The notes: generated by a model not told the origin, from the sequence alone. Shown: positions 38,962 through 61,353, counted from the stretch's first letter. The stretch: DNA of 64,000 nucleotides from Opitutales bacterium (GCA_965197745.1 CBDANS010000007.1:1628306-1692305); one strand, 5' to 3'. Numbers and translations: made by a program.

Positions 38962-38997
38962 AAAGTTAGTCTGGTCCAACTAGAAAGGACACAGACA

Positions 38998-40240
38998 ATG
39001 AAAGGCAAAAGATACACGACCGAAGAGAAAATACGGATGCTGCGCCAGGCGGACAAAGGGAAAACGATCCTGGAAGCATGCCGCGAGAACAACATAAGCG
39101 AACAGACCTTCCACCGCTGGAAACGTGAGTTTGGGATGATTGATGTCAACCAGGCCAAGCGGATGAAGGAGCTCTTTGAAGGAGAACGCGCGGTTAAAAC
39201 GGATGCTGGCGGACAAGATGCTGGGGATAGAGATCCTGCAGGAGACCCTCGAAAAAAAACTGTAAGCCCTGGGCACAAGCGGCAAGTGGCAGAGAGACTT
39301 GTGACTCGGGGCCAGTGTTCGATGCGAGCGGGGTGCCGGTACTTTCGGCTGCACCGTTCCACCTATGCGTATAGGGCCAAGCATCCGGATGCCTGGCTAA
39401 CGAAACTAAAAGCGGCAGTAAGGCGGTTATCACGGCAATACGCGAGGTGGGGCTATCCCAAGATCACGAAGCTGTTGAAGGACGAAGGCTGGCAGGTGGG
39501 TAAACGTCTCGTGCAACGTCTGCGACGTGAACTGGGTCTGGCGATCCCCCCACGCAAGCCAAGACGCCGGCGCAGGGATGTCTGCACCGGGCTACCGACA
39601 AAGGCCGAACATCCCGACCATGTTTGGACCTGGGATTTTATCCACGATAAGACGGTTCGCGGCGGCAGTCTAAAAATGCTGACCGTGCTCGATGAGTACA
39701 CCCGCGAGTGCCGGGTGATCCATGTTGATCGCCATATCAATGCGGAAACGGTGCGCGGTATCATGCAAAAACTGCTCGACCGGCATGGGCCGCCAAAATA
39801 TATTCGTAGCGACAACGGTTCCGTTCCGAGGAGCGAAGCGACGACATGCAAAGCCATTCATTGAAAGCCAATTGAGAGCCTGGCTAACTGCGATGAAAAT
39901 CAAAACCCTCTATATCGAACCAGCAAGCCCTTGGCAGAACGGATACATTGAATCGTTCCATGCCCGTTTTCGCGAGGAGTGTTTAAACCGTGAACAGTTA
40001 TGGACTTTGACCGAAGCCCGCGTGGTCATCGAAGATTGGCGCTGGCTTTACAATCATGTCCGACCCCACCGCAGCCTCGGCAACATCACTCCACGGCACT
40101 TCACTGAAAACCTCAATACCGAAGGCTCGGGCTCCATTCGGGCTACGCCCTCATTGCGCCCAAGCCTTGACTTCCTCTACCAACTTAACTTCAACATTAA
40201 CCTCTCCAGACTAACTCTCCCGGTGGACCAGTTTGTGTAA
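38998..40240 (+). pseudogene. IS-C transposase (orfAB) pseudogene
   Basis: The HTH N-terminus MKGKRYTTEEK.. is out of frame with the leucine zipper (ENARLKRMLADKMLGIEILQETLEKKL is readable only in the +1 frame). The rve core is DEYTRE...SDNGS[34-nt insert]FIESQLRAWL...SPWQNGYIESFH. Confidence 0.8.
39823..39856 (+). repeat. Short intragenic insert, type T2 (34 nt)
   Basis: gttccgaggagcgaagcgacgacatgcaaagcca lies between SDNGS and FIES. It matches the T2 copy in IS-A at 33 of 34 positions. Confidence 0.8.
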
Positions 40241-40242
40241 CC

Positions 40243-41612
40243 CGACCAGCCTGCTGACCCCAATCGGTATAGCGACAGACAAAACATCGGCCCCTTTCTT
40301 CGCGGAACGGATTCGTGCTTGTTCTGTGAAGGCATTCCTTGCGTTCGAAAACCGGCGGGGATGGCTTTTCCCTGATATTCATCATGAAGAACAGCCGTCC
40401 ATAATTGTGTTCACACTGTCCCAGCATCAATTTACTGACTTCGAATTCTGTGTCCGTATCTCGTCATGGGAACAGTTCAACGACTCCAATCGACGCTTCC
40501 GGGTATCCGCGAACCTCTTGAGTGAGGTTAATCGGAATACTGTAACCGTACCGTTGTTCCGTACCATGCGCGACGCTGAACTGACCACAGCGATTTACAG
40601 CCGCCTGCCGGTGTTGGTCGATCGATCATCGGGCGAGGAAGTTAAGGCATGGCCGGTGAAATACTCGACAATGTTCCATATGACCAACGACTCCGGCCTG
40701 TTCCGCACGCGCGAGGAGCTTGAGGAAAAGGAAGGTGCATATCACGTCGGTAGTAACCGCTTTGCCAGTCCGTCCGGAGACTGGGTGCCGCTCTATGAAG
40801 GCAAGATGATACAGATTTACAATCACCGCTACGCGAGTGTTCGTGTCAATCCCAAAAACATCAGTGGGCAAGGGGTGTCCGAAAAAACGGGGGCTGCGAC
40901 ACTTCAAGACCCCACATTCGTACCTGATCCGAGGTATTGGGTCAACACGATGCATATTTCAGAAGACGATCGTGAAAGATGGCGAATCGGTTTCAATGAC
41001 GTCTGTAATACGAACAACGCGCGAAGTGTTATTGCGTGCGTTGTTCCACATGCTGGATTCGGTAATACGCTACCGATCCTTTCTCTTGAGGAGAAGGCAC
41101 CTGATTTAGATCTTGTTCTGTTGGTTGCGAACCTCTGTGCACTTGTTTTCGATTATGTCGCCAGACAAAAAATCCAATCACGGCACCTGAACAAGTACAT
41201 CCTGGAGCAACTCCCGGTCGTCCAGTCCACCCGCTACAAAGCTGTCCACTTTGGAAAGAAGACCACCGCCGAAATTGTCCAAGAGGCCGTTCTTGAATTG
41301 ACCTACACCTCTGATGATATGGTCCAATTCGCTCACGATATGGGCTATGTCGATGAGGCGGGTGCAGTAAAACAGCCATTTTCCTGGAATAAAGATCGCC
41401 GTCTTCACCTACGCGCCAAGCTAGACGCCGTGTTCTTCCATCTTTACGGTGTCACAGACCGCGATGACATCCGCTATATCTATTCAACCTTCCCGATCGT
41501 TGAACGCAAAGAGAAGGCAACTTATCGTGGCGTGTACCGTTCCTGCGAACTTTGCCTTGCCTATATGAACGCTCTTGCCCATGGAAAACCGGACGCGGAG
41601 GTAAAGCTTTGA
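40243..41612 (+). pseudogene. C-terminal part of a large N6-adenine DNA methyltransferase / type IIG-like restriction-modification enzyme (5' truncated by IS-C)
   Basis: Motifs RDAELTTAIYSRLPVL, MFHMTNDSGLF and PLYEGKMIQIYNHRYA are recalled from the C-terminal halves of Eco57I/Alw26I-type methylase proteins. No methyltransferase domain is present. The ORF opens inside the IS-C right end, and its TGA is the first triplet of the next IS-like sequence. Confidence 0.45.
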
Positions 41613-42241
41613 CGTAGGACAGGAATATCCGGCTCTGCACTCTCTAATCGGAACTGATGTGTAGTTGGCGTGAGCTCCGAGGATAGGACCGTTGTCCGTG
41701 AGAGTCTTTCCGTAAATAAGAACGGAAAGACAAATGAAACAGAAGAGATGCACCACCGAGGAGATGCTCAACAATCGTGTATGGAGGAAGAGAATAGAAA
41801 TACCGAGTCGCATAACGACGACATCTTCCAATAGTAAGCTCGTGGCATAAGAAAGAAGCGGTAAAGCAAGTGGTAGCACAAGGGGGTTTCTCGCTGGATC
41901 GAGCGTGCTGGTATCTTCGAGCTGCATCGCTGAACTCATCTCTATGAGCACAGGCAGGAATCTTGTTATACTTAGCCCATGGTGAGCGGGTCATAAGACT
42001 TTCAAAGGCACATTTGCATTACGGTTATCGTCGTATTCATGCGCTGTTGAATAAAGAAAAGTGGAAGGCAAGGCGCAAAATCATGCAAAAAGGGTAAGAG
42101 CGTTGAAGGACTTGAGTGTTAAACCCTTTCGTCGCCTTCAGAGACGCCGAGGGCACTTTACTGGGCTTTCTACTAAAGCAGTAAGGCTGAACCATGTATG
42201 GAGTTGAGATTTAGTTGCGAGCGCAATACATCCGCTCCGAT

Positions 42242-42373
42242 TACGTTTACAAATCGGTATATGATATTACGGACAGTGTCAGATTCAAGAGCAGCTTGTA
42301 CGTATGTTTCTTCCCTAGCAGAGTTTCGATTTGATCCAGCAGTGTCAATTAGATCAAGTCGCAGCACGTATCA
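42242..42373 (+). repeat. MITE-like element, short (internally deleted) copy
   Basis: Inserted between IRSD and NG. Homologous to 61390-61582 at both ends (..tacaaatcggtatatgatattacggacagtgtcagattcaagagc.. and ..cgatttgatccagcagtgtc..agatcaagtcgcagcacgta). Confidence 0.55.
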
Positions 42374-42407
42374 AACGGTTTGTAGCACAAACAGTGAGAG
42401 AAGTACT

Positions 42408-42434
42408 CCTCAACAAGCGATAGCGAGAATAACA
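42408..42434 (+). repeat. Short intragenic insert, type T3, 3' half only
   Basis: cctcaacaagcgatagcgagaataaca compares with cctcaacgagccaaagcgagaataaca in IS-A. The 5' half was removed by a deletion whose junction lies in a shared CTCAA microhomology. Confidence 0.6.
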
Positions 42435-42473
42435 AATGTCCATGGTGCGTCTTTTTATCTTCCACTGCGTAAC

Positions 42474-42511
42474 GTACCAAGGAGCGCAGTGACGACATAG
42501 CAAAACACTCA
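42474..42511 (+). repeat. Short intragenic insert, type T1 (38 nt, diverged copy)
   Basis: gtaccaaggagcgcagtgacgacatagcaaaacactca lies between ..PLRN and (C)LNQEWF. Confidence 0.7.
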
Positions 42512-42778
42512 TGCTTAAATCAAGAATGGTTCCTAAGCGTTACCGAAGGGCGTGTTGTTATTGAAGCGTGGAAGCAAAACTAAAATGCCCAATATCCTCA
42601 TAGTCGTTTAGGCTTCCTCTCTGCCAATGCTTTTGCCAAACTCTGGCACCAACTCGATCCTACAAGTGCTGGCTCCACGAGCCCTACGGCCTATCTTCGC
42701 CAGCATCTCTTAAACCAATTATAGATAACCCATCGAATGGCTCTCACTCAACTTGGGTGTAATTATGAAGTCCAATCA

Positions 42779-42985
42779 TTGGTACAAAGGATATGCGGAA
42801 AGCTTCAATAATCATTTAAGAACTGAGTGCCTTGAGCACAAGTTACTATACACCCTGACTGAATCCCACGTGGTAATCGAACAATGGCGTCATACCTACA
42901 ATCATGAACATTCCCACCGTCGTTTAGGCTTTAAAAGCCCACTAACGTTTGTCAGTTTCTTTTCCGATCCTGAAATTAGGTAATG
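42779..42985 (+). pseudogene. IS3-family transposase C-terminal fragment (third variant, uninterrupted at the T1 site)
   Basis: W YKGYAESFNNHLRTECLEHKLLYTLTESHVVIEQWRHTYNHEHSHRRLGFKSPLTF. It starts exactly at the SPW|QNG codon position, directly after the preceding IS end. Confidence 0.7.
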
Positions 42986-43837
42986 AAAGATGAATCAAGA
43001 ATACTTACTATTGATGTCGCAGACTCAATCTGTGATGCGTCGATTGCATTATCGAACCAGACAACAGATGTTAAAACAGATTCTTGGCATCATATTAAAG
43101 GTTCGGTTATATATGAAAAAATAGTAATCAGTTATCTGCGTGTTCTGCGATTTATACCCAATAGTAAATACTATAGTCCAATTGGTAAATTCAAAGTCTG
43201 GGACTTTTCATCAACAGCATCGATTACAAGAAGTATTATTGAAGCATACTTCTGTTTGTTTTACATATGCATTGAAAATGTAAGTAATAAAGAAAAAGAG
43301 AAGAGAAAGCTTCTTTGGCTATACCATGAGAAAAATGAGAGACACAAAATGCTTAAGATAGCTTTGCCCAATTCGAAATATGTTGGTAAATTATATGATA
43401 AAAAAGAACGTCTTAGAAAAAAATTAGTAACCCACACTTGGTTCCTGAAACTTAAACCAGGACGACAAGAAGAACTATTAAAAAAAGATGTAAGCAAATT
43501 GGATGGAAATATAGAGATATGCAAAAAAGCAGGAATCAATCAAAATTATTACCAACCAACCTTTAAGTTTCTATCAAATTTTGCACACACTTCACCATTT
43601 TCAATTTATCATATAGACTCAAAGTACATTACTGAAAAGAAAGCGAAGTTATTATTCGGCCACATTGCTAACATTGCATCTGGCTTCTCTGTGATTGCTC
43701 TAGAAGATTACGCTAAGCTCTTTCCAGAGCAATCCCTTGATAACTCAGAGATTAATGAATATATTAATATTTGGAGAGAAATAATGCAGTGGGAGAAGTC
43801 TGAATATTTTGATAAATCTGAGGTTGACTCTAATTGA
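42983..43837 (+). CDS. Hypothetical protein, DUF5677-like (AT-rich cargo gene)
   Basis: 284 aa, helical. Contains SITRSIIEAYFCLFYI (R-x3-E pattern shared with 38368 and 47679) and a downstream FLSNFAHTSPFS. Its ATG overlaps the stop of the preceding fragment (TAATG). Confidence 0.4.
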   Translation: MKDESRILTIDVADSICDASIALSNQTTDVKTDSWHHIKGSVIYEKIVISYLRVLRFIPNSKYYSPIGKFKVWDFSSTASITRSIIEAYFCLFYICIENVSNKEKEKRKLLWLYHEKNERHKMLKIALPNSKYVGKLYDKKERLRKKLVTHTWFLKLKPGRQEELLKKDVSKLDGNIEICKKAGINQNYYQPTFKFLSNFAHTSPFSIYHIDSKYITEKKAKLLFGHIANIASGFSVIALEDYAKLFPEQSLDNSEINEYINIWREIMQWEKSEYFDKSEVDSN

Positions 43838-44047
43838 TGAGCATGCTTGTCAATGCCTGGCCATAAAGGTATCGTGTTCGCTAAAAGCGAAGACGTGGTA
43901 CAAGTCCTAGTCGAAGCTATTGAAGAGTATGGCAGAGCCCAATGCATCCGCTCCGATAATGGTTCGCAGTTCGTAGCACAAAAAGTCACAGAAGCATTCC
44001 TCAAGAGCCAGATCGACATTATCTCCATCACCCTTGGTAGTCCTCGG
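43836..44047 (+). pseudogene. IS-B-lineage transposase internal fragment (from the DE-YTR position to GSP)
   Basis: DEHACQCLAIKV..SEDVVQVLVEAIEEYGRAQCIRSDNGSQFVAQKVTEAFLKSQIDIISITLGSP. Nucleotide homology to 48790-48990 (reverse strand). Confidence 0.7.
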
Positions 44048-44063
44048 TGGTTATGCCACTTAA

Positions 44064-44912
44064 TTATGCTACTTTAATAAATGTGAGATTCGGACCCATA
44101 TCGTAGTCACACAGTTCGAGGCACCACCCTTCAGAGCTCTGATTATATGGTTCCCTTGCTTTCATTCTTCTCTGAATAAAGGAAATATTATCCTCAGGTA
44201 TTTCGTCACAAAAGTAAACGGAGTTGATGCAATTTTCAATCTCGTAAATGTTGATGGTATGTGAATCTTCCATTGAACCTATTTGTATATTTAGTTTGTA
44301 GTAATCTCTATGTACACCAATAAAACAATATTTTGGAGTTATCGGTAGTAATACACCCTTCAGTTCGTTCTTGTTATGCTTTGACCCGAGCCAGATTGAT
44401 GGACAATCTGATGTAAGTAGTAATCCGTCTTCTGAAAATGGAATAATGGCAAAATCCCAATTTTCTTCTATATAGGCTCTAATTTCGCTGTCACTCGAAT
44501 TCGATAGTTCACTGCTGATAAGAGATTCCTTGAAGATTTGAATACGTTTAAGGTAGAATTGAAATTCCTCTTCTATCGTATTGAACTTAAATTTGAAATT
44601 TCTTGCATAGAAATCTACAGCACAGAGGAAAAAATGAAACATAGACTTCTTTGATACTACATTACCCCTCAATAAAGATGTCATACATGATCTATATTTA
44701 CTCTCTGTTACACCAAAATATTTTTCACATAGTTCAGCTCGCTTCTGAGAGTAGAAATAGTCTTTCTGGCATTGATTCCGCACTGGAACGTATTCAGCAG
44801 AATTTAAACCAACTCTCCAGATTCGGCACTTTTTTAGGTCTACACCTGGCGGTATTGCGAACTGCCTTAGGTATATAATTGGCAGGTAATGTTGTTTCTT
44901 GTATTTCGGCAA
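44064..44912 (-). CDS. DUF4238 domain protein
   Basis: The N-terminal KKQHYLPIIYLRQF matches the DUF4238 signature (HY.P..YL..F). AT-rich, 282 aa. Confidence 0.6.
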   Translation of the reverse strand: MPKYKKQHYLPIIYLRQFAIPPGVDLKKCRIWRVGLNSAEYVPVRNQCQKDYFYSQKRAELCEKYFGVTESKYRSCMTSLLRGNVVSKKSMFHFFLCAVDFYARNFKFKFNTIEEEFQFYLKRIQIFKESLISSELSNSSDSEIRAYIEENWDFAIIPFSEDGLLLTSDCPSIWLGSKHNKNELKGVLLPITPKYCFIGVHRDYYKLNIQIGSMEDSHTINIYEIENCINSVYFCDEIPEDNISFIQRRMKAREPYNQSSEGWCLELCDYDMGPNLTFIKVA

Positions 44913-45237
44913 ATGTATTTGATGTTATACTCCTAATGCGGACTCGCATGTATTAGGTGTGAGATTGATCGGACTGGTTGGACCCCGTATTTCGTACCAA
45001 TTTTTAAGTGAGAGAACTACCGGGTGTTAATGGTATTAGGATTGATGTATATGAGAGATCTTGGCGCAGTGAGGGCGTAGCCCGAACGCGGCCAGGATCT
45101 GAAAGGAATCAGACAAACTCTTGTGGGCTTTGAAAGCCTAATCGACTGTGAGGATGTTCATTGTTATAGGTCTGACGCCATTGTTCGATTAGAACTTGCG
45201 CTTCAGCCACGCTGAGCAACACTTCAGGGTTCAAACA

Positions 45238-45275
45238 TGAGCGCTTCGCTATGTCGTCACTACGTTCCTCGGTAC
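45238..45275 (-). repeat. Short intragenic insert, type T1 (38 nt)
   Basis: The gene strand reads gtaccgaggaacgtagtgacgacatagcgaagcgctca. It carries an in-frame TAG and shifts the frame. Confidence 0.85.
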
Positions 45276-45314
45276 ATCGCGTAAGCGGTTGTGAAACGAC
45301 TCGATGAAACCGTT

Positions 45315-45359
45315 TGTTATTCTCGCTTTGGCTCGTTGAGGTGTCGCTTCGCTCGGTAG
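45315..45359 (-). repeat. Short intragenic insert, type T3 (45 nt)
   Basis: The gene strand reads ctaccgagcgaagcgacacctcaacgagccaaagcgagaataaca, replacing the Gln codon of SPWQNG. It stays in frame and has no stop. Confidence 0.85.
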
Positions 45360-45437
45360 CCAGGGACTGCCTGGTTGGATATAGAGGGTTTTGATTTTCA
45401 TCGCTGTTAGCCAGGCTCTCAATTCCTTTTCAATGAA

Positions 45438-45471
45438 TGGCTTCGCATGTCGTCGCTTCGCTCCTCGGAAC
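45438..45471 (-). repeat. Short intragenic insert, type T2 (34 nt)
   Basis: The gene strand reads gttccgaggagcgaagcgacgacatgcgaagcca, between SDNGS and FIEK. Confidence 0.85.
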
Positions 45472-45597
45472 ACTGCCATTATCACTGTGGATATAGCTGG
45501 GAGCTCCCTCCTTTTCAATGGCCTCGCTAAGCACAGAGAGGACATCGGTTGAGGTGAGCTGTCGAGCTACCCGGATGCGTAAACATTTACGCGTATA

Positions 45598-45642
45598 TGT
45601 CTTCGCTTCGCTTGAGTGTCGTCGCTTTCAGCTCCTCGGTAC
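45598..45642 (-). repeat. Short intragenic insert, type T4 (45 nt)
   Basis: The gene strand reads gtaccgaggagctgaaagcgacgacactcaagcgaagcgaagaca, replacing the Glu codon of LIDEYTR. It contains an in-frame TGA. Confidence 0.85.
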
Positions 45643-46070
45643 ATCGATCAAGGTCATCATCTTTAGCATACCGCCATTGTCTGTACGATCATGGACAAAG
45701 TCCCAGGACCAGACGTGATTGCGACCGGTTGCTTTAGTAGGGAGCCCAGTAGAGATCCCCTGACGGTGTCTACGCTTTTTCGGGGGCTTTACCTGTAAGC
45801 CCGAAGAACGTCGCACTGCCTGTACAAATTTCCTGCTTGCCGCCCAACCTTCCTTCACCAGCAGGGCACGAATGCGCCGGTAACCGTAACGGGGATGTTC
45901 CCAGGACAAGGTCAAAATCCGCTCGGCCAATTGCTGAGCCTTCTTACTGGCCTGCTTGGGTCGGTAGCTGTACGTTGACCAACTGAGGCTGAGATAAGCA
46001 CAAGCCCTCCGAAACGAGCACAGCCCCTTCTCAGCCGCATCTTTTACTGCTCGCTTCTTCTGCTTTGGGC

Positions 46071-46337
46071 TCACCATTTTTTTGAGAGCGTTTCCTCCAA
46101 CACCCGAAGCTTGAGCATTTGATCAGCGAGCATCTTCTTCAGCTCCGTGTTCTCCTTTTCCAGTTCTTTAAATCGCTTCGCATCAGCCAGCTCCAAGTTG
46201 CCATACTTTTTGCGCCAGCGATAGAAGGTCTGTTCACTTAGGTTGTTGCCGTGGCAGACTTCCTGCACGGTTTTGCCCGTATCGGGCTGCCGGAGTATTG
46301 CTATGATCTGTTCTGTTGTATATCTTTTTCTTTTCAT
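46071..46337 (-). CDS. IS-A copy A orfA (HTH + leucine zipper)
   Basis: MKRKRYTTEQIIAILRQ...LSEQTFYRWRKKYG...KRFKELEKENTELKKMLADQMLKLRVLEETLSKKW. Start taken at the Met at 46337. Confidence 0.8.
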   Translation of the reverse strand: MKRKRYTTEQIIAILRQPDTGKTVQEVCHGNNLSEQTFYRWRKKYGNLELADAKRFKELEKENTELKKMLADQMLKLRVLEETLSKKW

Positions 46338-46402
46338 TGAGGTTATCTGTTTATCCCGATAACCTCTCTCTGTTAATGATACCATTTTTTGGGGTCACTC
46401 CA

Positions 46403-46991: not shown

Positions 46992-47516
46992 TTAGCCTCC
47001 TTGATCTTCTTGGTAATTTGCGAGGGAATCTTCGTACGCTTCGCGCCTCGTGTCCCACGGCACATCTGTGAACCCGTCGATGATGTTGAGGGAAAGTTGG
47101 GCTTCCGCCATGTACCCGCGACGTTCATTCTGGTTCGTCAGGATCAACTGAACCAAGCGAACGCGGTCTGGATAGCGAATCCACCCCTCAACCTCCCGGC
47201 GCAGCCAGTCAAGCCAGAGCCTTGGGGTCTCGTCAAGCGGTTCCTTTCGCATGAACGGCAGCGCCAACTGCCGATAGTCATGCCGGAAGCGCCAGACTGC
47301 AGCCAAAAGGTCGTGAGCATGCTGCAGTGTTCTGTGATCGAAACTATCAATCCTGCCCCATTCTCGGTGATCGGTATCGTCCAGAACAATTCGGGCAAAC
47401 TCCGCGTACAGGTTACATCGCGAAACAATGATCCCTTGTGCTTGTGGATACACGTCGTGTTGTTTCCCGGCCACTTCCATGTCCACGTCACCTTCAAAAA
47501 AGGACCCGACAATCAC
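46992..47516 (-). CDS. Hypothetical protein (174 aa), G+C-rich
   Basis: Balanced amino-acid composition, unlike the overlapping 290-aa plus-strand ORF. No family recognised. Contains RTLQHAH (weak R-x(4-6)-H resemblance only). Confidence 0.45.
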   Translation of the reverse strand: MIVGSFFEGDVDMEVAGKQHDVYPQAQGIIVSRCNLYAEFARIVLDDTDHREWGRIDSFDHRTLQHAHDLLAAVWRFRHDYRQLALPFMRKEPLDETPRLWLDWLRREVEGWIRYPDRVRLVQLILTNQNERRGYMAEAQLSLNIIDGFTDVPWDTRREAYEDSLANYQEDQGG

Positions 47517-47678
47517 TTGGTCTCTCCAGCAAATTTCGGCCGGTGGGTGCTATACCGCAAGCACTGCGACCGCCAATTGCGTTCCGCAATCGCCTCACCG
47601 GCGCGGAAGTGTCGGTCGATTACCATCTCTGCACACCCATATTACACAGTTGTTCGCGCGGCAGCTCTCTGTATAGGC

Positions 47679-48398
47679 TTATCGGAGCCCAACCTCCACC
47701 AACGTCCTCAGTCGTTGCTTCTCCTTGTGAATACGCTGTTCCTTTTCGCTTTCTCGACGGCCTTCGTTAAGTGTATGAACATGGCCAGCGCATTGCGCAC
47801 CAATTTCCAGCAATGCAATCAGATCGTTTCTTATCTGTTCATTATTGTGAATAACTGCTCCATATTCGTTTGACCATCCCATCCACACACTTCTTGCAGC
47901 CATATGAACCGAATCATTCCACCAATCCTTCTTTCCTCTCATCCAGCTCACGGTTGTTCTCATGATATTTTGCTTGTTCAGATCATTCCACATTCTATCT
48001 AGGCTTGGAGACTTCCTCTTACTTAACAGGGTCTTCCATGCCCTTGCCGCATCTCCAGAACTTCTAAACAAGAAATTTTCCGCATATTCTTCTTTCGCGA
48101 CGAATTCGAGCCAAATCCCTCTAGTGTAACTCTCAAACATCGGCCTCTTAGTCAATCCGAATAACAGTCCATCTTGCCGATTCTTCAAACTGGATCCTAG
48201 TAATTGTGCACCCAGGCTAGCTATTCTTATCGCTGCGTTGTATTGCAATATGGCTCCCATACCTTTCCAACCAATTGTTTCGACATATACTGATGGACGC
48301 TTCTTCGTACGCTCAACCCCGGCCTCCCAAGCCGAAAGATTACGAGAAACTTCACCTACTAATTCTTCCAGTCCCGGCTTAAGAGATTTTTCTTGCAT
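47679..48398 (-). CDS. Hypothetical protein, DUF5677-like
   Basis: 239 aa, helical. Contains LTKRPMFESYTRGIWLEFV (R-x3-E pattern) and a downstream WWNDSVHMAARS. Its start lies 24 bp from the IS-B right end. Confidence 0.45.
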   Translation of the reverse strand: MQEKSLKPGLEELVGEVSRNLSAWEAGVERTKKRPSVYVETIGWKGMGAILQYNAAIRIASLGAQLLGSSLKNRQDGLLFGLTKRPMFESYTRGIWLEFVAKEEYAENFLFRSSGDAARAWKTLLSKRKSPSLDRMWNDLNKQNIMRTTVSWMRGKKDWWNDSVHMAARSVWMGWSNEYGAVIHNNEQIRNDLIALLEIGAQCAGHVHTLNEGRRESEKEQRIHKEKQRLRTLVEVGLR

Positions 48399-48687: not shown

Positions 48688-48725
48688 TGAGTGCTTCGCT
48701 ATGTCGTCACTACGTTCCTCGGTAC
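48688..48725 (-). repeat. Short intragenic insert, type T1 (38 nt), in the IS-B lineage
   Basis: The gene strand reads gtaccgaggaacgtagtgacgacatagcgaagcactca, between HNRLRD and CLNQEWF. It matches the IS-A copies at 37 of 38 positions. Confidence 0.85.
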
Positions 48726-53639: not shown

Positions 53640-53640
53640 T

Positions 53641-53950: not shown

Positions 53951-53986
53951 CAGTCCCTCTATTTTATTAAGCTTACTTAACTGATT

Positions 53987-54470
53987 CATCCCCGAGGGAC
54001 TATTCGCCAGAAACGATCTGCTTCCTCAGTAGTTACCAGGTCGAGATAGTAATTACGGATCACGGATTCAGAGTTGCTTGCCTGAGGTGCAGCGTCTCCT
54101 ACCGAGCGGAAGGACCCCACCGTCATCGAAATATAGGTATGCCGTAGGGCATTAGGTGGAGTTTGCGCTATTTACGGACATTAGCCTACATGTCGCGGAA
54201 TCTCCTTGTTGGTATGGTGAGGTAGCTGCCAGGAGGATACTTCTCCAACCAGAGGCTACGGGTGGGCTGGATTTTAACGGATCGCTTATCCTTTACTTTG
54301 GAGACATCCGGTTCGATAAGGATAACCCCGCTATCCCTATGGATGTGTTTAGGTTTGAGTTTGCTCATTTTACCGTGTTTCCAGTCAAGTCTGTAAACAA
54401 AGTTTTTCTTAATCTACTTCATAGGGAAATCTGGAGGTGCCATTACAGGTTCTGGTGCGATTAAACTTGT
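53987..54470 (-). pseudogene. Second tyrosine integrase, C-terminal half only, with in-frame stops and a frameshift
   Basis: The minus strand reads ..RLDWKHGKMSKLKPKHIHRDSGVILIEPDVSKVKDKRSVKI.. then *, then ..PPNALRHTYISMTVGSFRSVGDAAPQASNSESVIRNYYLDLVTTEEADRFWRIVPRG*. It is collinear with the 33.5-33.9 kb part of the first integrase. Confidence 0.65.
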
Positions 54471-54533
54471 CTCCACCGGGCGCATAAATTTATTGTTTTG
54501 CCTCACAAGGGTCTGTTAATCGAGATTATTAAA

Positions 54534-55052
54534 TTCACTCAAAAATTATTGACCGATTCCTGGCTGAACCTTACCAAAAAAGTATTCCTGCCCATTCCTG
54601 CCAAACATTTTGAGGCAAGGTCAGGAAATTAGAGGAAAATATAAATTATTATTGTGCCGTTATTTAAGTATAACTAATTGTTAATAAGCAGTTTATAAGG
54701 CATTATTGAGTCCCGTTCATAGTCGGTTTCATCGAGTCGTTTCACAACCGCTTACGCGATGTACCGAGGAACGTAGTGACGACATAGCGAAGCGCTCATG
54801 TTTGAACCCTGAAGTGTTGCTCAGCGTGGCTGAAGCGCAAGTTCTAATCGAACAATGGCGTCAGACCTATAACAATGAACATCCCCACCGTCGATCAGGC
54901 TTTCAAAGCCCACAAGAGTTTGTCACATTCCTTTCAGATCTTGGCCGCGTTCGGGCTACGCCCTCACTTCGCCAAGATCTCTCATATACATCAATCCTAA
55001 AACCATTAACACCCGGTAGCTCTCTCACTTAATAATTGGTACGAAAAACGGG
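54534..55052 (+). repeat. Duplicated composite segment S1 (about 200 bp AT-rich sequence fused to the last ~320 bp of IS-A)
   Basis: Homologous to 61098-61814. The junction ...cccgttcatagtc|ggtttcatcgag falls one codon after the T3 position. It ends in the IS-A right inverted repeat ...cggggtccaatca. Confidence 0.8.
54761..54798 (+). repeat. Short intragenic insert, type T1 (38 nt)
   Basis: gtaccgaggaacgtagtgacgacatagcgaagcgctca lies between NRLRD and CLNPEVLL. Confidence 0.85.
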
Positions 55053-55254
55053 GTCCAATCAGTTTTTTAGAATATAAATTTAAAAAAGCGGTAAGGATCA
55101 GCTGAAGCTCAGCCACTGCTGAGCTATTGCGATTAAGCACCGTGTTTCACCTAACTTATATCCTATGTATACTCTGCGCTCTCTGCGTCTCCGCGGGAAA
55201 ACATTTGCTGAACTGAATGTTGTATATTTAGATGTAACCCTATTAATCTAAGGC

Positions 55255-56853
55255 ATGATGGATCAACCGTTTCGACTGATATGGGAGGCTGAATGGAACG
55301 ACATCGCGTGCGTGGATTACCCGCTAACGCCGGAGCAATGGCTGGGCGAATGCATACGCCCGCTAGAGGGGACGCAGGTAGACTGCCTGCTCTACAACCT
55401 GTGCTCGTCGGACGCATACTGCTGTGACCTGGAGAGCGGCGAGATCCTGGGCGATGAGTTCGAGCAATTCCCGGATGCATGGGTTTGGCGCTATCGAGAG
55501 AATACCAAGAAGCTGATCGAGGCGAACGCGAACCCGCCAAAGCTTGCGTGTGAGTACGGGCGCCGCATGGGATTGAAGCTGATACCGGTCGTTCGCATGA
55601 ATGATCCACACGACCAGGCTTACAAGTACGAGGTCAGCCGGTTCAAAATGGCCAACCTGCATCTGCTCTTGGGTTACACCGGACCGGATTGGCAGCCGCC
55701 TTGGGGGACTTGGTGGCGAGCGCACCCCAATCCCGAGAGTATGGACGCCACCAATTGGGGACTGTTTGATTTTGCGCACAAAGAGGTCCGCGACCACAAA
55801 ATGGCCATCATCGAGGAGTTCATCACCCGATGGGACAACGACGGCATCGCGCTTGATTTCGAACGCGATCCTCGCTACTTCAAAGAGTTCGGCAAGGCGG
55901 AAAACGCCGTGCTTATCACGGACATAGTGCGGCAAACGCGCGAGCTTCTGGACCGCGTGAGCTGCGAACGTAGTCGACCCATGTACCTGCATGTGCGTGT
56001 CGTGGCGGATATCGACACGTGCTGGCAACGAGGACTGGACGTGCACACGTGGGTGAAAGAGGGATTGGTCGACGTCGTTGTGCCTGGCGCCGGATACATG
56101 TTATTCGATATGGACCTTGGTCCGTGGTTGGAACTGGTCGAAGGGCATGACTGCTGGATATTCCCCTGCGTGAACCACTGGAGAAAGACGGAAGTGACCC
56201 GCGCCTGGGCCAAGTTGATGTATCAACGGGGAGCGCATGGGCTGCAACTGTTCAACTTCGGGCACTTGCTCTACGGACACGGTATAGATACGCCACCGCA
56301 ATCCGAACGGACAGGGACGGTCTGGTACGACGATCTGCACCCGGAGTATTACCGTGTGCTGCACGAGATCCACGATCCGGGCGTGATTGCCTTTCTCAAC
56401 TGCGATTACGATCTCGATTCACATCCGCGCGCACCAAACCAGGGAGCTCATTCGGGACAGAACCACAGGACCTACCGGGGTATCGACGCGATCGTGCTCC
56501 CTGTGGAGCTGTCGGTTGGGTCACACGTCATCCCGTTCGGGATTGCCGATGATCTGGAAGCGGCGCGGCAACGGGCGCTGTCGCCGAGAGTCACCTTGCA
56601 CTTGCAGGTACACAACTTCACGCGGCCCGATGAGTATAAGGTCTCAGTTAACGGAAGCTTATTGCCGGGAGATGCTCGGAGCACTCGGGCGCAGTTTATC
56701 ATGGACAATTTTACCCGAATGACTTATCTCCTGCCGCCCGATGTCTTGAGGCTCGGTCAGAATGAATTGAAGATCGAAGTGGAACGCCTCAACCCGGCAA
56801 TTTGCGTGACTCCGCGGCTGGATCACGTCGAGATTCTCGTGCAATATGCCTGA
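55255..56853 (+). CDS. Hypothetical protein, possibly a glycoside-hydrolase-like TIM-barrel protein
   Basis: 532-aa G+C-rich ORF. The antisense ORFs look like shadows. Weak resemblance to GHL10-type proteins (alternating strand/helix pattern, GIALDFERD); function not established. Confidence 0.35.
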   Translation: MMDQPFRLIWEAEWNDIACVDYPLTPEQWLGECIRPLEGTQVDCLLYNLCSSDAYCCDLESGEILGDEFEQFPDAWVWRYRENTKKLIEANANPPKLACEYGRRMGLKLIPVVRMNDPHDQAYKYEVSRFKMANLHLLLGYTGPDWQPPWGTWWRAHPNPESMDATNWGLFDFAHKEVRDHKMAIIEEFITRWDNDGIALDFERDPRYFKEFGKAENAVLITDIVRQTRELLDRVSCERSRPMYLHVRVVADIDTCWQRGLDVHTWVKEGLVDVVVPGAGYMLFDMDLGPWLELVEGHDCWIFPCVNHWRKTEVTRAWAKLMYQRGAHGLQLFNFGHLLYGHGIDTPPQSERTGTVWYDDLHPEYYRVLHEIHDPGVIAFLNCDYDLDSHPRAPNQGAHSGQNHRTYRGIDAIVLPVELSVGSHVIPFGIADDLEAARQRALSPRVTLHLQVHNFTRPDEYKVSVNGSLLPGDARSTRAQFIMDNFTRMTYLLPPDVLRLGQNELKIEVERLNPAICVTPRLDHVEILVQYA

Positions 56854-56960
56854 GCGCACCCGTTTAGTGTGCTACATGCACAATTCAGAACAGATCAGAA
56901 TATTACTTCCGCGCTCTGGGTGTCAATCAGGCCGTCTCAATTGCGGATTGATTCCATTTG

Positions 56961-57240
56961 TCATCGCGAAGGAAGCGTAGCTGACTGTGGCTACCGAGCG
57001 TGAAACGCGACATCTTCTATTCCAGGGGGCTGTCAATACGTGACCGACATCCTCCTGGAGTGGAAGATGTCGCTGAGCTCGGTAGCTTCGTCGCATTGCT
57101 CCTCGCAATGACAAGAGGATAATTACGAAGATAAGGATTATATTCGATAACCGTTAGACACAATCCGTAATCCGTACCGAGAGCTAAGCGCGACATCCCT
57201 CATTCCGCATTCCGTACCGAGGGCGAAGACCGACATCCAT
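56961..57240. repeat. Intergenic cluster of at least 6 copies (both orientations) of the [G/C]TACCGAG...GCGACAT short-repeat family
   Basis: Units: 56991-57017 ctaccgagcgtgaaacgcgacatcttc (+); 57061-57085 (-), which reads ctaccgagctcagcgacatcttcca; 57086-57113 (-); 57174-57198 gtaccgagagctaagcgcgacatcc (+); 57214-57238 gtaccgagggcgaagaccgacatcc (+). Partial units occur at 56961-56985 and 57034-57055. The cluster lies between two convergent genes. Confidence 0.75.
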
Positions 57241-57247
57241 AATCGTC

Positions 57248-57940
57248 TCACTCGATCGTTACCTCATCGACAGCAATGGTGATCTCATCACCCTCTTCAT
57301 TAACGAAGGTTGCATTGATATTTTGAGTCGGTTGAGGAGTGTTGTCAGATTTAAAATTGTTCTGCGTAATCAAGGTATCAAATTCTCGCGTCGTCGATCC
57401 GCTCTCCGCGACTACGATCGAAGCTCCATTTGTCTGTGCCAGGTCTCCTCCAGTGATCCGCAACCCGGGGTTGCTGGCCGGCACCGTGAAGGAACCTTCT
57501 CCAAACAGCAAATGTGGTACTGCATCGTCACTGGCATCGATGTCACCTACGGTTAAGCGTACTGCTATCGGTACTCCGCGTGCATCGACGCCTACTTTGC
57601 CGGTGTCTCCACTGAAGACAGTATTCGACAACTGAATCCCTCCCATCCCCGTGGAGTTGATCACTTCCACCAAGGTGACGTCGGCTTGCGCGTCATAAAC
57701 CTGTCCCTCGGGGAAGAGCGCCTGGTTCACCGCGTTGATCGATCCCACCGTAAAGATACTGAAGAAGGTACTGGAGTCAGCTCCATCGATGACTACGCTC
57801 GGCTTACCGGTCACGTACTCGACGGCCTGGTTGTAGCGTAGGGGTGGAGCCGGAGGCAGGAAGGTGGCCGGGTCCAAGATTACAGTAAAGGTCCCTGCGC
57901 CCGAGAACTCTACCTGCACAATGTCCTCATTTTCGTCCAT
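57248..57940 (-). CDS. Hypothetical beta-rich protein, probably the C-terminal part of a larger surface protein (5' end cut by IS-A copy B)
   Basis: The reading frame stays open upstream of the first Met into the IS terminus 15 bp away. Thr/Gly/Val-rich and G+C-rich. Confidence 0.5.
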   Translation of the reverse strand: MDENEDIVQVEFSGAGTFTVILDPATFLPPAPPLRYNQAVEYVTGKPSVVIDGADSSTFFSIFTVGSINAVNQALFPEGQVYDAQADVTLVEVINSTGMGGIQLSNTVFSGDTGKVGVDARGVPIAVRLTVGDIDASDDAVPHLLFGEGSFTVPASNPGLRITGGDLAQTNGASIVVAESGSTTREFDTLITQNNFKSDNTPQPTQNINATFVNEEGDEITIAVDEVTIE

Positions 57941-58217
57941 GAAGGAGACCCGTGTGATCGGACCCCGTTATTCGTACCAATTATTAAGTGAGAGAGTTAC
58001 CGGGTGTTAATGGTTTTAGGATTGATGTATATGAGAGATCCTGGCGCAGTGAGGGCGTAGCCCGAACGCGGCCAGGATCGGAAAGGAATCTGACAAACTC
58101 TTGTGGGCTTTTAAAGCCTAAACGACTGTGGGGATGTTCATTGTTATAGGTCTGACGCCATTGTTCGATTAGAACTTGCGCTTCAGCCACGCTGAGCAAC
58201 ACATCAGGGTTCAAACA

Positions 58218-58255
58218 TGAGCGCTTCGCTATGTCGTCACTACGTTCCTCGGTAC
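58218..58255 (-). repeat. Short intragenic insert, type T1
   Basis: Identical to the copy at 45238-45275. Confidence 0.85.
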
Positions 58256-58294
58256 ATCGCGTAAGCGGTTGTGAAACGACTCGATGAAACCGTT

Positions 58295-58339
58295 TGTTAT
58301 TCTCGCTTTGGCTCGTTGAGGTGTCGCTTCGCTCGGTAG
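58295..58339 (-). repeat. Short intragenic insert, type T3
   Basis: Same sequence and position as 45315-45359. Confidence 0.85.
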
Positions 58340-58417
58340 CCAGGGACTACCCGGATCGATATATATCGCCTTGATGTTTTTTTCACGCAACCACCGCTGT
58401 ACTTGATGAGCGATAAA

Positions 58418-58451
58418 TGGCTTCGCATGTCGTCGCTTTGCTCCTCGGAAC
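58418..58451 (-). repeat. Short intragenic insert, type T2
   Basis: The gene strand reads gttccgaggagcaaagcgacgacatgcgaagcca. Confidence 0.85.
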
Positions 58452-58577
58452 ACTGCCATTATCACTGCGGATATAGCTGGGAGCTCCCTCCTTTTCAATG
58501 GCCTCGCTAAGCACAGAGAGGACATCCGATGAGGTGAGTTGACGAGCTACCCGGATATCCAGACATTCACGCGTATA

Positions 58578-58622
58578 TGGCTTCGCTTCGCTTGAGTGTC
58601 GTCGCTTTCAGCTCCTCGGTAC
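58578..58622 (-). repeat. Short intragenic insert, type T4
   Basis: Same as 45598-45642 except for one base at its 3' end (..gaagcca versus ..gaagaca). Confidence 0.85.
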
Positions 58623-59050
58623 ATCGATCAGAGTCATCATCTTTAATGGACCGCCATTGTCTGTGCGATCATGGACAAAGTCCCAGGACCAAAGGTGATT
58701 GCGACCGGTTGCTTTAGGAGGCGACCCTGTAGAGACTCCTTGACGGTGTCTGCGCTTTTTTGGTGGCTTTACCTGTAAGCCCGAAGAACGTCGCACTGCC
58801 TGTACAAATTTCCTGCTCGCCGCCCAGCCTTCCTTCACCAGCAAGGCACGGATGCGCCGGTAACCGTAGCGGGGATGTTCCCAGGACAGGGTTACAATCC
58901 GCTCGGCCAACCGCTGAGCTTTCTTACTGGTCTGCCTGGGCCGGTAGCTGTACGTTGACCAACTGAGGCTGAGATAAGCACAAGCCCTCTAAAACGAGCA
59001 CAGCCCTCTCTCAGCCGCATCTTTTACTGCTCGCTTCTTCTGCTTGGGGC

Positions 59051-59317
59051 TCACCATTTTTTTGAGAGCGTTTCCTCCAACACCCGAAGCTTGAGCATTT
59101 GATCAGCGAGCATCTTCTTCAGCTCCGTATTCTCCTTTTCCAGCTCTTTAAATCGCTTCGCATCAGCCAGCTCCAAGGTGCCATACTTTTTGCCCCAGCG
59201 ATAGAAGGTCTGTTCACTTAGGTTGTTGCCGCGGCAGACTTCCTGCACGGTTTTGCCCGTATCGGGCTGCCGGAGTATTGCTATGATCTGTTCTGTTGTA
59301 TATCCTTTTCTTTTCAT
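59051..59317 (-). CDS. IS-A copy B orfA
   Basis: MKRKGYTTEQIIAILRQ.. with the leucine zipper intact. Confidence 0.8.
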   Translation of the reverse strand: MKRKGYTTEQIIAILRQPDTGKTVQEVCRGNNLSEQTFYRWGKKYGTLELADAKRFKELEKENTELKKMLADQMLKLRVLEETLSKKW

Positions 59318-59384
59318 TGAGGTTATCGGGTTATCCCCATAACCTCTCTCTGTTAATGATACCATTTTTGGGGGTCACTCCATT

Positions 59385-59924
59385 TTGCCTCGGGAGTTCA
59401 TCGAAACGTTTATCGAGGCCTCCTCAAAGTATGCGGAAGTCACCGACGAATTAAACAACTTCATCGATCGGCTCAACCAGGTAAAATCAGCTGAGACCGA
59501 TAACCTGACTGAGGTCGAGATTGATTCCATGTTTTATTTTGACCCGAAATTTGTGGACGAGGTGGACGAGGCAGGACTCGAACTGAAAAAGCTATATCTA
59601 AAAGAATTTGCAGTAGATATGCACTACCAATCGACCAATGTTTTCTGGATTGGAGAAGGGACTGAAAAAGAACTTTATCCTGAAGGAGATGATACAAAAC
59701 CTGTCTTTGGGGGAAACGCGATCTATTACAGAAGTAAGGACAATTTACCTTCATGGATTCCAGACGATAAAGTAAATCTTGAGTTGCCTCCCCCATCGAA
59801 TTTTAATCCCCGTTTGCATACCGACCCGGATACAGAACCCTTTATCTGGGTTCCTGCTGGAACATGGGGATTCTTTTGTATTGATCGACAATGGAAGATA
59901 GCGATCATCCGTTCTGGAACATAA
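59385..59924 (+). CDS. Hypothetical protein; the listed TTG start is 3 bp from the IS end, so it is probably a 5'-truncated gene
   Basis: 179-aa ORF with acidic composition. No family recognised. Confidence 0.35.
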   Translation: MPREFIETFIEASSKYAEVTDELNNFIDRLNQVKSAETDNLTEVEIDSMFYFDPKFVDEVDEAGLELKKLYLKEFAVDMHYQSTNVFWIGEGTEKELYPEGDDTKPVFGGNAIYYRSKDNLPSWIPDDKVNLELPPPSNFNPRLHTDPDTEPFIWVPAGTWGFFCIDRQWKIAIIRSGT

Positions 59925-60132
59925 TTCGATCGACTGGGATGAAACAGTTTAGCCGAGTAAACGAGCGAAGACAGCCATTGGCAAAGGAAGAGAAGTCAAA
60001 GGATGATGGGATTAATCATGCCTAATCCTCGTGCTTCAGTATTGAGTCGGCATTCCCCAACCTTACAAAGTACATCCGTCATTTTGAATGGTTGACACTG
60101 TCGCAATTTCCAGTCACCTCGACACTTGAATA

Positions 60133-60172
60133 GTGATCGGACCCCATTATTCGCACCAGTTTAAGTAAGGGA
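60133..60172 (+). mobile_element. Solo IS-A-type terminal inverted repeat
   Basis: TGATCGGACCCCATTATTCGCACCAGTTTAAGTAAGGGAG matches the right ends at 57955 and 44966. No transposase sequence follows it. Confidence 0.6.
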
Positions 60173-60368
60173 GCAAGGGAAATCAAAGATGGCCTAAGCA
60201 CATTGTCGACCTGTTACCGGATTCGTTCGAGGAGTCGGAGTAATGACTGAGCTGAACTAAGTGAAGCACCAACCCATAACCCTCAAAGTCATTACGATTT
60301 ACGAACTGCCTTTCGACTGCGCCAGCCAGAGACAACGAATAACTCCATGGTGATGTACCCACGAGCCG

Positions 60369-60833
60369 TTACCGGGCGGGGGCATCCACAGCCAAATCGG
60401 TGGTGATGAGGGCGAAAATGCCCTCTATATCGCGCGCCGGGACAGAGCGGGTGATCATCCAAATCTCACCGCCACCCGCATCAAAGTAAGGGGCTGTCCA
60501 GACGCCCGTATTCGCTGCCAATGGCGCTGTAACCCAGACCTGAGTCTCAATGTTGTAGGTGGGTGTGGCGAGGTCGTGGGTGGCGTAGCCGTCGGCGGTG
60601 CGATAGACATAGGGGCAAGTGGTGACCACACCAGCATGATCGAGCAGCGCAGCGGCACTGCCGTGGAACGCGGGGTTGGCCTCCAAGTAGGCCCGTAAGC
60701 GCTCCGTATACGCGGCTGGATTGGCTGGTCGTTCCACCTCCAACTCTGCCACCAAGGTGTCGAGGGCGGCAACCACCGCAGTCTTCAAGCCCTCCTGAGT
60801 GGGCGCGCTAGGACTACAGCCTTGGGCAGTCAA
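60369..60833 (-). CDS. Small Cache/PDC-type sensor-domain protein, lipoprotein-like; the N-terminus is unclear (possible frameshift)
   Basis: VWTAPYFDAGGGEIWMITRSVPA....GIFALITTDL is a Cache_1-like signature. Upstream in frame it reads RAAALSLLLLTFLTAQGC, but the only ATG is in another frame. G+C-rich. Confidence 0.5.
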   Translation of the reverse strand: MTAQGCSPSAPTQEGLKTAVVAALDTLVAELEVERPANPAAYTERLRAYLEANPAFHGSAAALLDHAGVVTTCPYVYRTADGYATHDLATPTYNIETQVWVTAPLAANTGVWTAPYFDAGGGEIWMITRSVPARDIEGIFALITTDLAVDAPAR

Positions 60834-60959
60834 GAAGGTAAGCAGCAGCAGAGACAGGGCCGCTGCTCGAACATGAGGTGATGGGTTTGGAACCTAGGGG
60901 CGATGTATTGCCATGGAGCGTAAACGAGACGGGTTGGTTTAGGGACTGATATACACAAC

Positions 60960-61081
60960 TGTACTTGTTGCCTTGTTGCAACTTGATCTAACAGACACTG
61001 TTTTATCAAATCGCAACTCTTCCAGAGAATAACATTGATTGTTTTCTTCTCAACTTCCAATCAAATAATAAGTTATCGTCG
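60960..61081 (-). repeat. MITE-like element, right-half copy in inverted orientation
   Basis: tgtacttgttgccttgttgcaacttgatctaacagacactgttttatcaaatcgcaactcttccagagaataacattgattgttttcttctcaacttcc... is the reverse complement of 61468-61580 with a few substitutions. Confidence 0.7.
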
Positions 61082-61315
61082 TGGAGTGCCCCAAAAATCC
61101 ACTCGAAAATTCTTGGCCGATTCCTGGTCGAATATCATCAAAAAATATGATTCCTGCCAAACATTTAGAGGCAAGGTCAGGAAGTTAGAGGAAAATATAA
61201 ATTATTATTGAATCGTTATTTACGTGTAACTAATTGTTATTAAGCAGCTTAAAAATCATTATTGAGTCCCGTTCATAGTCGGTACATCGAGTCGTTCCAC
61301 AACCTCTCACCCGAT

Positions 61316-61353
61316 GTACCTAGGAACGTAGTGACGACATAGCGAAGCGCTCA
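61316..61353 (+). repeat. Short intragenic insert, type T1
   Basis: gtacctaggaacgtagtgacgacatagcgaagcgctca. Confidence 0.85.

Follow-up and report, generated by a model that had tools for sequence, protein, structure and literature searches.

Why are transposase genes of IS3-family insertion sequences (ISs) in an Opitutales bacterium interrupted again and again, at the same few codons, by related inserts of some tens of nucleotides (nt)? The question is raised by a 64,000-nt stretch of DNA (GCA_965197745.1 CBDANS010000007.1:1628306-1692305), called the window throughout, in which an original prediction had noticed such inserts at four positions, termed T1 to T4. Our analysis revealed that T1–T4 are true presence/absence insertions. 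They belong to a real family of insertion elements in Verrucomicrobiota, ultra-short, target-specific and apparently not described before, which infest other mobile DNA. The family is described here by its insertion polymorphism, junction rule, target motif and host range, and by mosaic IS copies bounded by elements; in kind it is classed with the small non-autonomous dispersed repeats that are already known. Our preferred explanation, held with moderate confidence, is that the inserts are DNA insertion elements of 26–49 nt that are moved in trans, are spread by their host ISs and by recombination, and disrupt genes.

Empty alleles, junction rule and target

Empty alleles were sought by a protein search with a repaired orfB. 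Uninterrupted full-length orfB homologues (306–307 amino acids, 91–94% identical) were found on large contigs of related genomes. Insert-free copies L081–L083 (L-numbers denote loci or stretches collected from other genomes or metagenomes) were aligned with the window copies IS-A and IS-B and with IS-D of another genome, which gave the exact empty alleles of all four sites: ATCGAT GAA TATACG for T4, GGCAGT GAG TTCATT for T2, CCCTGG CAA AAYGG for T3 and CGCGAT GAG TGTTTG for T1. The nucleotide backbones of empty and filled copies are approximately 94–95% identical. A search for empty-site alleles in relatives, as the original prediction had proposed, was thus successful at every site. Empty sites are also present in the window. 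The divergent copy IS-C reads GAT GAG TAC, TGG CAG AAC and GAG GAG TGT at the T4, T3 and T1 sites (GAG at 39694–39696, CAG at 39935–39937 and GAG at 39977–39979), and the fragment at 42753–42985 reads ACT GAG TGC at its empty T1 site; uninterrupted homologues in the window therefore carry a single Glu or Gln codon, as had been claimed.

At all sites with an empty allele, the trinucleotide [G/C]A[A/G] has become [G/C]-T(A/T)CCGAG...C-A. The first base of the apparent element is G where the target is GAR and C where it is CAA or CAG, indicating that this base is part of the target. Two bases of the target disappear, none is duplicated, and the net gain is 27–42 nt. The rule is the same at no fewer than nine independent sites. 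Some are out of codon phase (L002/L053, TGG CA|GAA|T GGT; L030). One, in antisense orientation, coincides with the frameshift site in another lineage (L004), and others are non-coding, namely GGTTC|GAA|TCC in T-loops and GGTC|GAA|TGG in D-loops, for which the intact tRNA-Ser gene alongside served as the empty reference.

The left flanks vary among sites (GAT, AGT, TCC, TGG, TTC, ACA and others), and a T after the target trinucleotide recurs at most of the independent sites elsewhere. The original prediction had described insertion without duplication into flanks that are not constant; the first part stands, and the flanks are not featureless, since TGART surrounds T1, T2 and T4. In the insert-free IS, which is 1276 nt long, this pentamer is read four times on the sense strand, at 758, 887, 983 and 1010. 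Three of them are the T4, T2 and T1 sites, a coincidence that is in part circular because the motif was derived from these very sites, and the remaining one coincides with the catalytic Glu codon of IESF. Diverged IS lineages offer the same few targets, since the pentamers encode the retained D-E-Y, S-E-F and D-E-C. The positions look fixed because the IS has only four sense-strand TGART pentamers, all in codons that the protein keeps (D-E-Y, S-E-F, I-E-S and D-E-C). The "four fixed codon positions" are thus explained by a nucleotide target, (T)GAR|T, of which the IS has few and which falls on conserved Asp/Ser-Glu codons; no codon-level logic is needed.

A dispersed family in mobile DNA

The elements are 26–49 nt long, asymmetric and non-coding. 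A 5' T(A/T)CCGAG(G) is followed by a variable segment, GCGAC(GAC)A, usually GCGAAGC, and a 3' ...CA. The variable segment (11–16 nt), often a mini-hairpin of the GNA type, separates the conserved sequence blocks. GCGAAGC is a classic stable DNA mini-hairpin (PMC13037366). A short form of approximately 26 nt, GTACCGAG-CGTTAGCG-ACATCTTCCA, also exists and in the window forms the arms of the palindrome at 56958–57118. A coding constraint inside the element was considered, as the frame TEERSDD shows only synonymous changes among T1, T2 and L003; it was rejected because the variable segment changes length and the varying positions are mini-hairpin positions 1, 4 and 7.

An exact-pattern scan of 185,579 species genomes, one genome per species, matched at least 80 loci. 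Among the 80 loci listed, approximately 64 belong to Opitutales/Puniceicoccaceae, among them cultured Pelagicoccus, Cerasicoccus and Thalassobacterium and, with dozens of copies, two long-read metagenome-assembled genomes (MAGs); the other approximately 16 are chance matches in GC-rich genomes, with the head missing. The presence of the family across cultured genera and long-read MAGs excludes an assembly artefact. A scan of JGI metagenomes yielded nine loci only, viral contigs contained no element, and a plasmid collection searched with the IS gave only distant IS3 matches in Proteobacteria.

The elements occur in many contexts other than T1–T4. An IS5-family transposase gene contains a copy that is in frame and open (L013/L041), and an IS66 gene has one in antisense orientation (L028). 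Further IS3 lineages carry elements both at T2 and at additional sites (L065, L030). In group II introns the element occupies the terminal loop of a domain-I hairpin, where the Rfam alignment shows 49 inserted nt, and in L001 it lies in the loop of a 7-bp hairpin. In partial tRNA copies, which form 110–123 nt tandem units beside intact tRNA-Ser genes, elements occupy T- or D-loops. One subtype (...GACGACAAAGCGAAGCGCCCA; tail AAAGCGAAGCGCCCA) was present at six or more unrelated sites in several genera. These results indicate, as the original prediction had supposed, a dispersed family of short elements rather than one inherited set of mutations, and the pattern search that it had suggested places the family widely in Opitutales/Puniceicoccaceae, mostly in other mobile DNA. 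When 15 loci were searched against Rfam, no family covered the elements, the matches being to tRNA, tmRNA and group II introns only, and we found no published description of this family. This is in line with the view that it matches no recognised class.

Several further observations concern these contexts. The same domain-I hairpin loop is occupied in several Opitutales (L072:2622-2832, L010:4184-4300, L037:1511-1709, L086, L092), and in L010 a second, different element lies approximately 25 nt downstream of the intron-loop element. The tRNA-linked arrays (L003:6650-7060, L005:3950-4370, L015:150-570, L085/L087/L088, L014, L019, L022, L025, L089) contain one to three tandem units before or after tRNA-Ser, and Asn- and Phe-derived fragments also occur. 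Each unit is a partial tRNA copy, either an acceptor/T-arm-like minihelix or the 5' part to the D-loop. An integrase beside these arrays was considered and rejected, as the neighbours (Fic, SDR, T5orf172, aldo-keto reductase and ribosomal protein L25) are mutually unrelated and include no integrase. Hairpin-loop targeting holds for the T-loop, the D-loop, the group II loop and L001, and not clearly for the IS sites, so that it was not adopted as a general rule. Element-like sequences with altered heads (GCACCGAGG, AACCGAGG) were found in T-loop-like contexts outside Opitutales, namely in Woeseiaceae MAGs (L033, L006) and in metagenome contigs of 56–58% GC (L084/L089). They may extend the host range of the family beyond Opitutales.

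Spread among insertion sequence copies

IS copies that are mutually 84–98% identical carry no insert, T4, T1, T3, T2, T4+T2, T3+T1, T2+T3+T1, T4+T2+T3 or all four. With so many combinations among close copies, insert presence does not follow the IS phylogeny. The original prediction had named as unfavorable to itself a full congruence of inserts and host IS copies, with no copies elsewhere in the genome; such a congruence was not found. Where the 120-nt flanks are 58–67% identical, the elements are 93–100% identical, a figure that is biased upward by the regular expressions used for collection.

Mosaic copies are bounded by the elements. The T2–T3 interval of IS-A (79 nt; window 45360–45437 versus 39857–39934) is 91% identical to IS-C, and the rest of IS-A is like IS-B, so that the recombination patch ends exactly at the two elements. 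In L077, the lineage switches at T1. Judging from these sequences, identical inserts probably act as islands of identity for recombination between diverged ISs.

Each IS site always holds its own subtype, even in lineages that are 67–73% identical and have diverged flanks up to the junction. In L053, for example, a T4 element lies in a 67%-identical lineage with recipient-type flanks up to the junction. This fidelity of subtype to site speaks for a measure of homology-guided copying from one paralogue to another, in addition to true insertion. Pairing of the element with its flank as a guide, in the style of IS608 or group II introns, was rejected as the basis of the fidelity; a 7-nt match exists at T1 in one lineage, and 3 of 48 tests (24 sites, two flanks each) gave p < 0.05, as chance predicts. 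No alleles with an excision footprint (a 3-nt deletion) were found.

Copies in the window

Re-reading of the window found the predicted inserts at every interval, in IS3-family orfA/orfB genes with HTH_Tnp_1 and rve domains. Between 39 and 62 kb, the window is crowded with copies and remnants of IS3-family ISs, as judged from self-BLAST and from these domains, and the first 39 kb encode PBP2, RNase R, SHMT, PurD, Mpl and other housekeeping proteins. When a profile of the family that drew on elements from many contexts was run on the window, it recovered exactly these inserts (E = 7e-9 to 7e-3 for T1, T2 and T4, and 0.018 for T3) and nothing credible in bases 1–39000. GCGAAGC occurs 24 times in the window against 8.75 expected, a count reached by no shuffle.

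IS-A (44980–46402, minus strand) is a full IS3-family copy, and IS-B (57960–59382, minus strand) is 92.6% identical to it. Each consists of orfA, an A7 slippery site and an orfB interrupted by T4, T2, T3 and T1; the T2–T3 interval of IS-A is of the IS-C type. IS-C (38996–40240, plus strand) is a divergent IS3-family copy whose sole insert is T2. T1 elements (38 nt, at RLRD^CLN) number six. They lie in IS-A (45238–45275, minus), in IS-B (58218–58255, minus), in a 3' IS fragment that is 96% identical to IS-A (54761–54798, plus), in an IS fragment, with the head mutated to CCTAGG (61316–61353, plus), in a divergent IS lineage (48688–48725, minus; flanks approximately 73% identical to IS-A, 37/38 bases identical in the element) and, decayed, in a pseudogene fragment (42474–42511, plus). 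Sequence and profile matches support these copies, together with self-BLAST for those at 54761 and 48688. Three T2 elements (34 nt, at SDNGS^F) are found in IS-A (45438–45471, minus), in IS-B (58418–58451, minus; sequence and profile match) and, by sequence, in IS-C (39823–39856, plus). T3 elements (45 nt, at GSPW^NG) are present in IS-A (45315–45359, minus) and IS-B (58295–58339, minus), and the 3' part of a further copy stands at the start of an IS fragment (42408–42434, plus). T4 elements (45 nt, at LID^YTR) occupy 45598–45642 (minus) in IS-A and 58578–58622 (minus) in IS-B. The weak T5 candidate of the original prediction could not be placed in the window. T5, an insert in orfA, was met only in IS copies of other genomes, and its site is empty in IS-A and IS-B.

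Four related short modules that had not been listed before lie outside any IS. Two of them, 56991–57019 (plus) and 57061–57085 (minus), are contained in the arms of a palindromic intergenic unit of approximately 160 nt (56958–57118) that resembles a miniature inverted-repeat transposable element (MITE) or a REPIN. This unit folds strongly as single-stranded DNA (−50.4 kcal/mol, z = −8.0) and has homologues in L020, where it is split by an IS-D insertion, and in L047. At both ends it starts with TTGTCAT(C/T)GCGA(A)GGA. The other two, 57174–57202 and 57214–57239, form an intergenic tandem of short-form modules (57174–57239, plus).

The surroundings show other features. A tyrosine recombinase gene (32777–33925) marks the boundary between the housekeeping genes and an island of approximately 33–64 kb, which contains IS fragments, genes for DUF4238, DUF5677 and DUF6988 proteins and two TonB-dependent receptors. 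Four of its open reading frames (ORFs), at 40233–41612, 47001–47873, 55255–56853 and 57248–57940, have no Pfam match. The orfB of IS-B carries an in-frame TAG at 58982–58997 (…GLCSF*RAC…, TTT TAG AGG versus TTT/TTG CGG AGG), which recurs in L042:284-1584, L031 and L093, in otherwise conserved IS lineages, without following lineage.

Effects on the host genes

Translation agreed with the predicted effects on the reading frame. T1 and T2 are frameshifts, and T1 and T4 carry in-frame stops (TGA in T4); T3 and T4 are 45 nt long, and T3 remains in frame and has no stop. The inserts thus usually kill the transposase gene through frameshifts and stops. Several insert-bearing copies have further lesions, including extra stops. 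Intact IS copies exist in related genomes, in one of them beside a T3-bearing copy, and since these could act as helpers, no rescue at the RNA level is needed.

IS-D of the MAG CBDCNV01 (L008, L011, L016 and others, e.g. L008:1236-2580) bears on this point. It carries T4 and T5, the latter as a 27-nt net insert in orfA. Both are in frame with one TGA each, and the ORFs and the slippery site are otherwise intact. The variant has recently multiplied to at least 18 full copies, which are 0–2 nt apart and stand at different sites; some of them show 4-bp duplications. No intact orfB on the two contigs of this MAG was found among the cluster members listed for the ten top clusters. IS-D is thus either mobilised in trans or expressed despite the stops. 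Between copies with the same disabling inserts, dN/dS is 0.17–0.23, similar to the 0.13–0.15 of insert-free controls. Both the burst of IS-D and the low dN/dS are explained if inserts were acquired recently and repeatedly, or if live copies acted as donors in conversion.

Discussion

In the explanation that we prefer, an element would be inserted at the DNA level into 5'-[G/C]A[A/G]-3', usually followed by T and within TGART at three of the four IS sites. The first target base would be kept and the next two would be replaced by the element, with nothing duplicated. De novo insertion would be a copy-and-paste process driven by an enzyme supplied in trans, possibly a single-strand-DNA transposase of the HUH type, rolling-circle-like or Y1. 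This guess is suggested by the asymmetric ends, the hairpin just inside the 3' end and the lack of both duplication and excision footprint. The short target is often exposed in hairpin loops, and the architecture appears closest to the minimal cis-signals of HUH systems. In view of the two-base replacement, the HUH-type step is one that we infer only. Later spread would proceed through transposition of the host IS and recombination between IS paralogues, with the identical 34–45 nt inserts serving as cross-over points. The elements would be parasites or passengers of other mobile DNA, disrupting the transposase gene.

Several points weigh against this explanation. To our knowledge, no transposition chemistry replaces two target bases, and no mobilising enzyme was identified in 736 kb of collected DNA. 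TGART is not sufficient for insertion, as none of the 181 such sites in bases 1–38900 of the window (44 outside large ORFs) is occupied. The fidelity of subtype to site is not predicted by free transposition from a common pool, nor is it explained by pairing. The recent multiplication of IS-D with its two stop-bearing inserts and the low dN/dS of disabled copies also count against it. Finally, the pattern scan is skewed to two MAGs and to well-conserved elements.

The alternative that survives best requires no dedicated enzyme. T1–T4 would each have arisen once, by accidental templated insertion, and would have spread from one IS paralogue to another by gene conversion, or by copy-choice while the IS transposes replicatively. 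The strict association of subtype and site across IS lineages, the mosaic tracts bounded by elements and the tracking of IS lineages by single-base variants across genomes (e.g. the tail GCACTCA in the 48688 lineage) all agree with it, as does the enrichment of elements in multi-copy sequence, with 0 of 181 TGART sites filled in single-copy DNA. However, the family, and even the same subtype, is found at many non-homologous sites (IS5, IS66, group II introns, tRNA loops, L001, L007, L039), and these sites all obey one junction rule across several genera. In addition, the T4 copy of L053 leaves at most 6 nt of homology for conversion, and the conservation of sequence blocks from genus to genus speaks for their being recognised by a protein. 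We therefore consider spread by repair alone improbable, yet worth serious consideration.

Ordinary repetitive extragenic palindromic (REP) elements or REPINs, moved by a REP-associated tyrosine transposase (RAYT), a Y1 HUH enzyme, are a still less likely source. The family resembles them in being short (20–40 nt), high-copy, non-autonomous and intragenic in the same bacterial order, without target duplication, and its head, GTAC/CTAC, is reminiscent of the GTAG tag of REPs. In addition, two copies of its short module, inverted relative to each other, fold into a strong hairpin at 56958–57118. Opitutus terrae is rich in REPs, with the most intragenic GTAG REPs and many inside genes (Di Nocera et al. 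2013, PMC3733652). Those REPs, however, are palindromes of approximately 21–24 nt that encode 7–8 residues (PMC3733652), and the encoded peptides differ from those of our elements. The elements have no GTAG-plus-stem architecture, for which a stem of 5–13 bp would be expected. When eight element types were folded as single-stranded DNA, the minimum free energies were −0.6 to −6 kcal/mol, with z-scores of −0.7 to +1.8 relative to shuffles; since single elements fold no better than shuffled sequences, they are not palindromes of the REP type. Most copies are intragenic and most lie in mobile elements, two target bases are replaced at (T)GAR|T, and T1–T4 are singlets. A RAYT or Y1 TnpA gene was sought, as had been suggested, and a tblastn search with IS200 and IS608 TnpA gave no match at E < 0.6 in the 736 kb, a weak negative, since RAYTs are single-copy and a sample of this size is insufficient to find one. 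A RAYT-like gene flanked by inverted elements was also considered; the inspected opposite-strand head pairs proved to be chance 8-mers or IS-internal sites, another weak negative.

The elements were also compared with other known systems. The palindrome-associated transposable elements (PATEs) of IS200/IS605 insert 3' of a constant tetra- or pentanucleotide without loss of bases, whereas the present elements remove two bases and have variable left flanks. The REP/PATE hairpin precedent that had been proposed for the inserts is therefore not supported, the elements being non-palindromic as well. They share with PATEs, IS91 and Helitrons, as HUH elements, the asymmetric ends, a hairpin inside the 3' end, a short target and the absence of duplication and of terminal inverted repeats, but they are ten-fold smaller than typical members, and no HUH gene was identified in the 736 kb. 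MITEs differ in that the head (TWCCGAG) and the tail (...CA) of the family are unrelated and no junction shows a target-site duplication. Rickettsia palindromic elements (RPEs) are likewise short repeats in protein-coding genes; unlike the family, they are approximately 100–150 bp long, palindromic and in frame, and are kept in functional proteins. The present elements, at 26–49 nt, mostly cause frameshifts or stops (stops in T1, T4 and T5) and disable the host gene, with T3 and the IS5 copy as the only open, in-frame cases.

Another parallel is offered by the small dispersed repeats SDR4–6 of Nostoc and its relatives, reportedly sequence families of 21–27 nt described by Elhai and colleagues in 2008. 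They too are reported to be very small (<50 nt) and apparently mobile, to have no transposase of their own and no duplication, to vary in presence or absence where the surrounding sequence is conserved, and often to lie nested in other repeats. They belong to another phylum and differ in sequence, and the present family is distinguished by a target motif, a junction rule and a strong bias to transposase genes.

The possibility that a bacterial mini-intron, ribosomal bypass or stop read-through removes or passes over the inserts, so that the "broken" IS-D would still make transposase, can be regarded as very doubtful. Homing introns and inteins, too, occupy identical conserved sites of homologous genes again and again, and the "byp" elements of Magnusiomyces mitochondria are inserts of 27–55 nt inside ORFs. 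The 18 copies of IS-D with T4 and T5, the lack of an intact orfB among the listed cluster members of its MAG, the dN/dS of 0.17–0.23 and the much greater conservation of elements than of flanks could be read in this manner. Moreover, the frame is always regained when the S...A segment is cut out, since the product then differs from the empty allele by −3 nt. Such a removal, however, would delete a Glu or Gln that is invariant in 15 intact homologues and adjoins the catalytic D and E. From a reading of the sequence, take-off and landing codons match at T1 only, where GAU can pair with GAC in the downstream frame; at T2 and T4, no match lies in frame. Hopping of the ribosome or rescue by a frameshift is thus workable on paper for T1 alone. 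Neither a stable fold nor pairing of the flanks at both junctions, as expected of an intron, was found, complementarity being at the level of chance, and 26–49 nt leave no capacity for a ribozyme or endonuclease. We observed no evidence of removal. The further stops in several insert-bearing copies, the intact helper copies in related genomes and the ability of gene conversion from live copies to keep dN/dS low in dead ones point the same way. Our results thus agree with the original prediction that rescue at the RNA level is the less likely course.

The idea of one ancestral set of mutations, inherited by IS duplication and without mobility of its own, agrees with the sharing of all four inserts by IS-A and IS-B and is hardly credible, as it is contradicted by the many combinations, including none, among close relatives and by the presence of the family in unrelated hosts and genera.

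In practice, the inserts lead to transposase genes of these genomes being called as fragments or pseudogenes, and the short target motif predicts where. If our explanation is true, few of the site-specific insertion elements known in bacteria would be as small as these. The elements are not palindromic, and the replacement of two bases without duplication fits no described transposition chemistry, which would imply a new enzyme or mechanism. The preferential disabling of mobile-element genes (IS3, IS5 and IS66 transposases and group II introns) would make them a natural case of parasites on parasites, one that may hold back the expansion of ISs in Verrucomicrobiota. At the same time, they would carry stretches of identity from place to place, through which diverged IS lineages can recombine.

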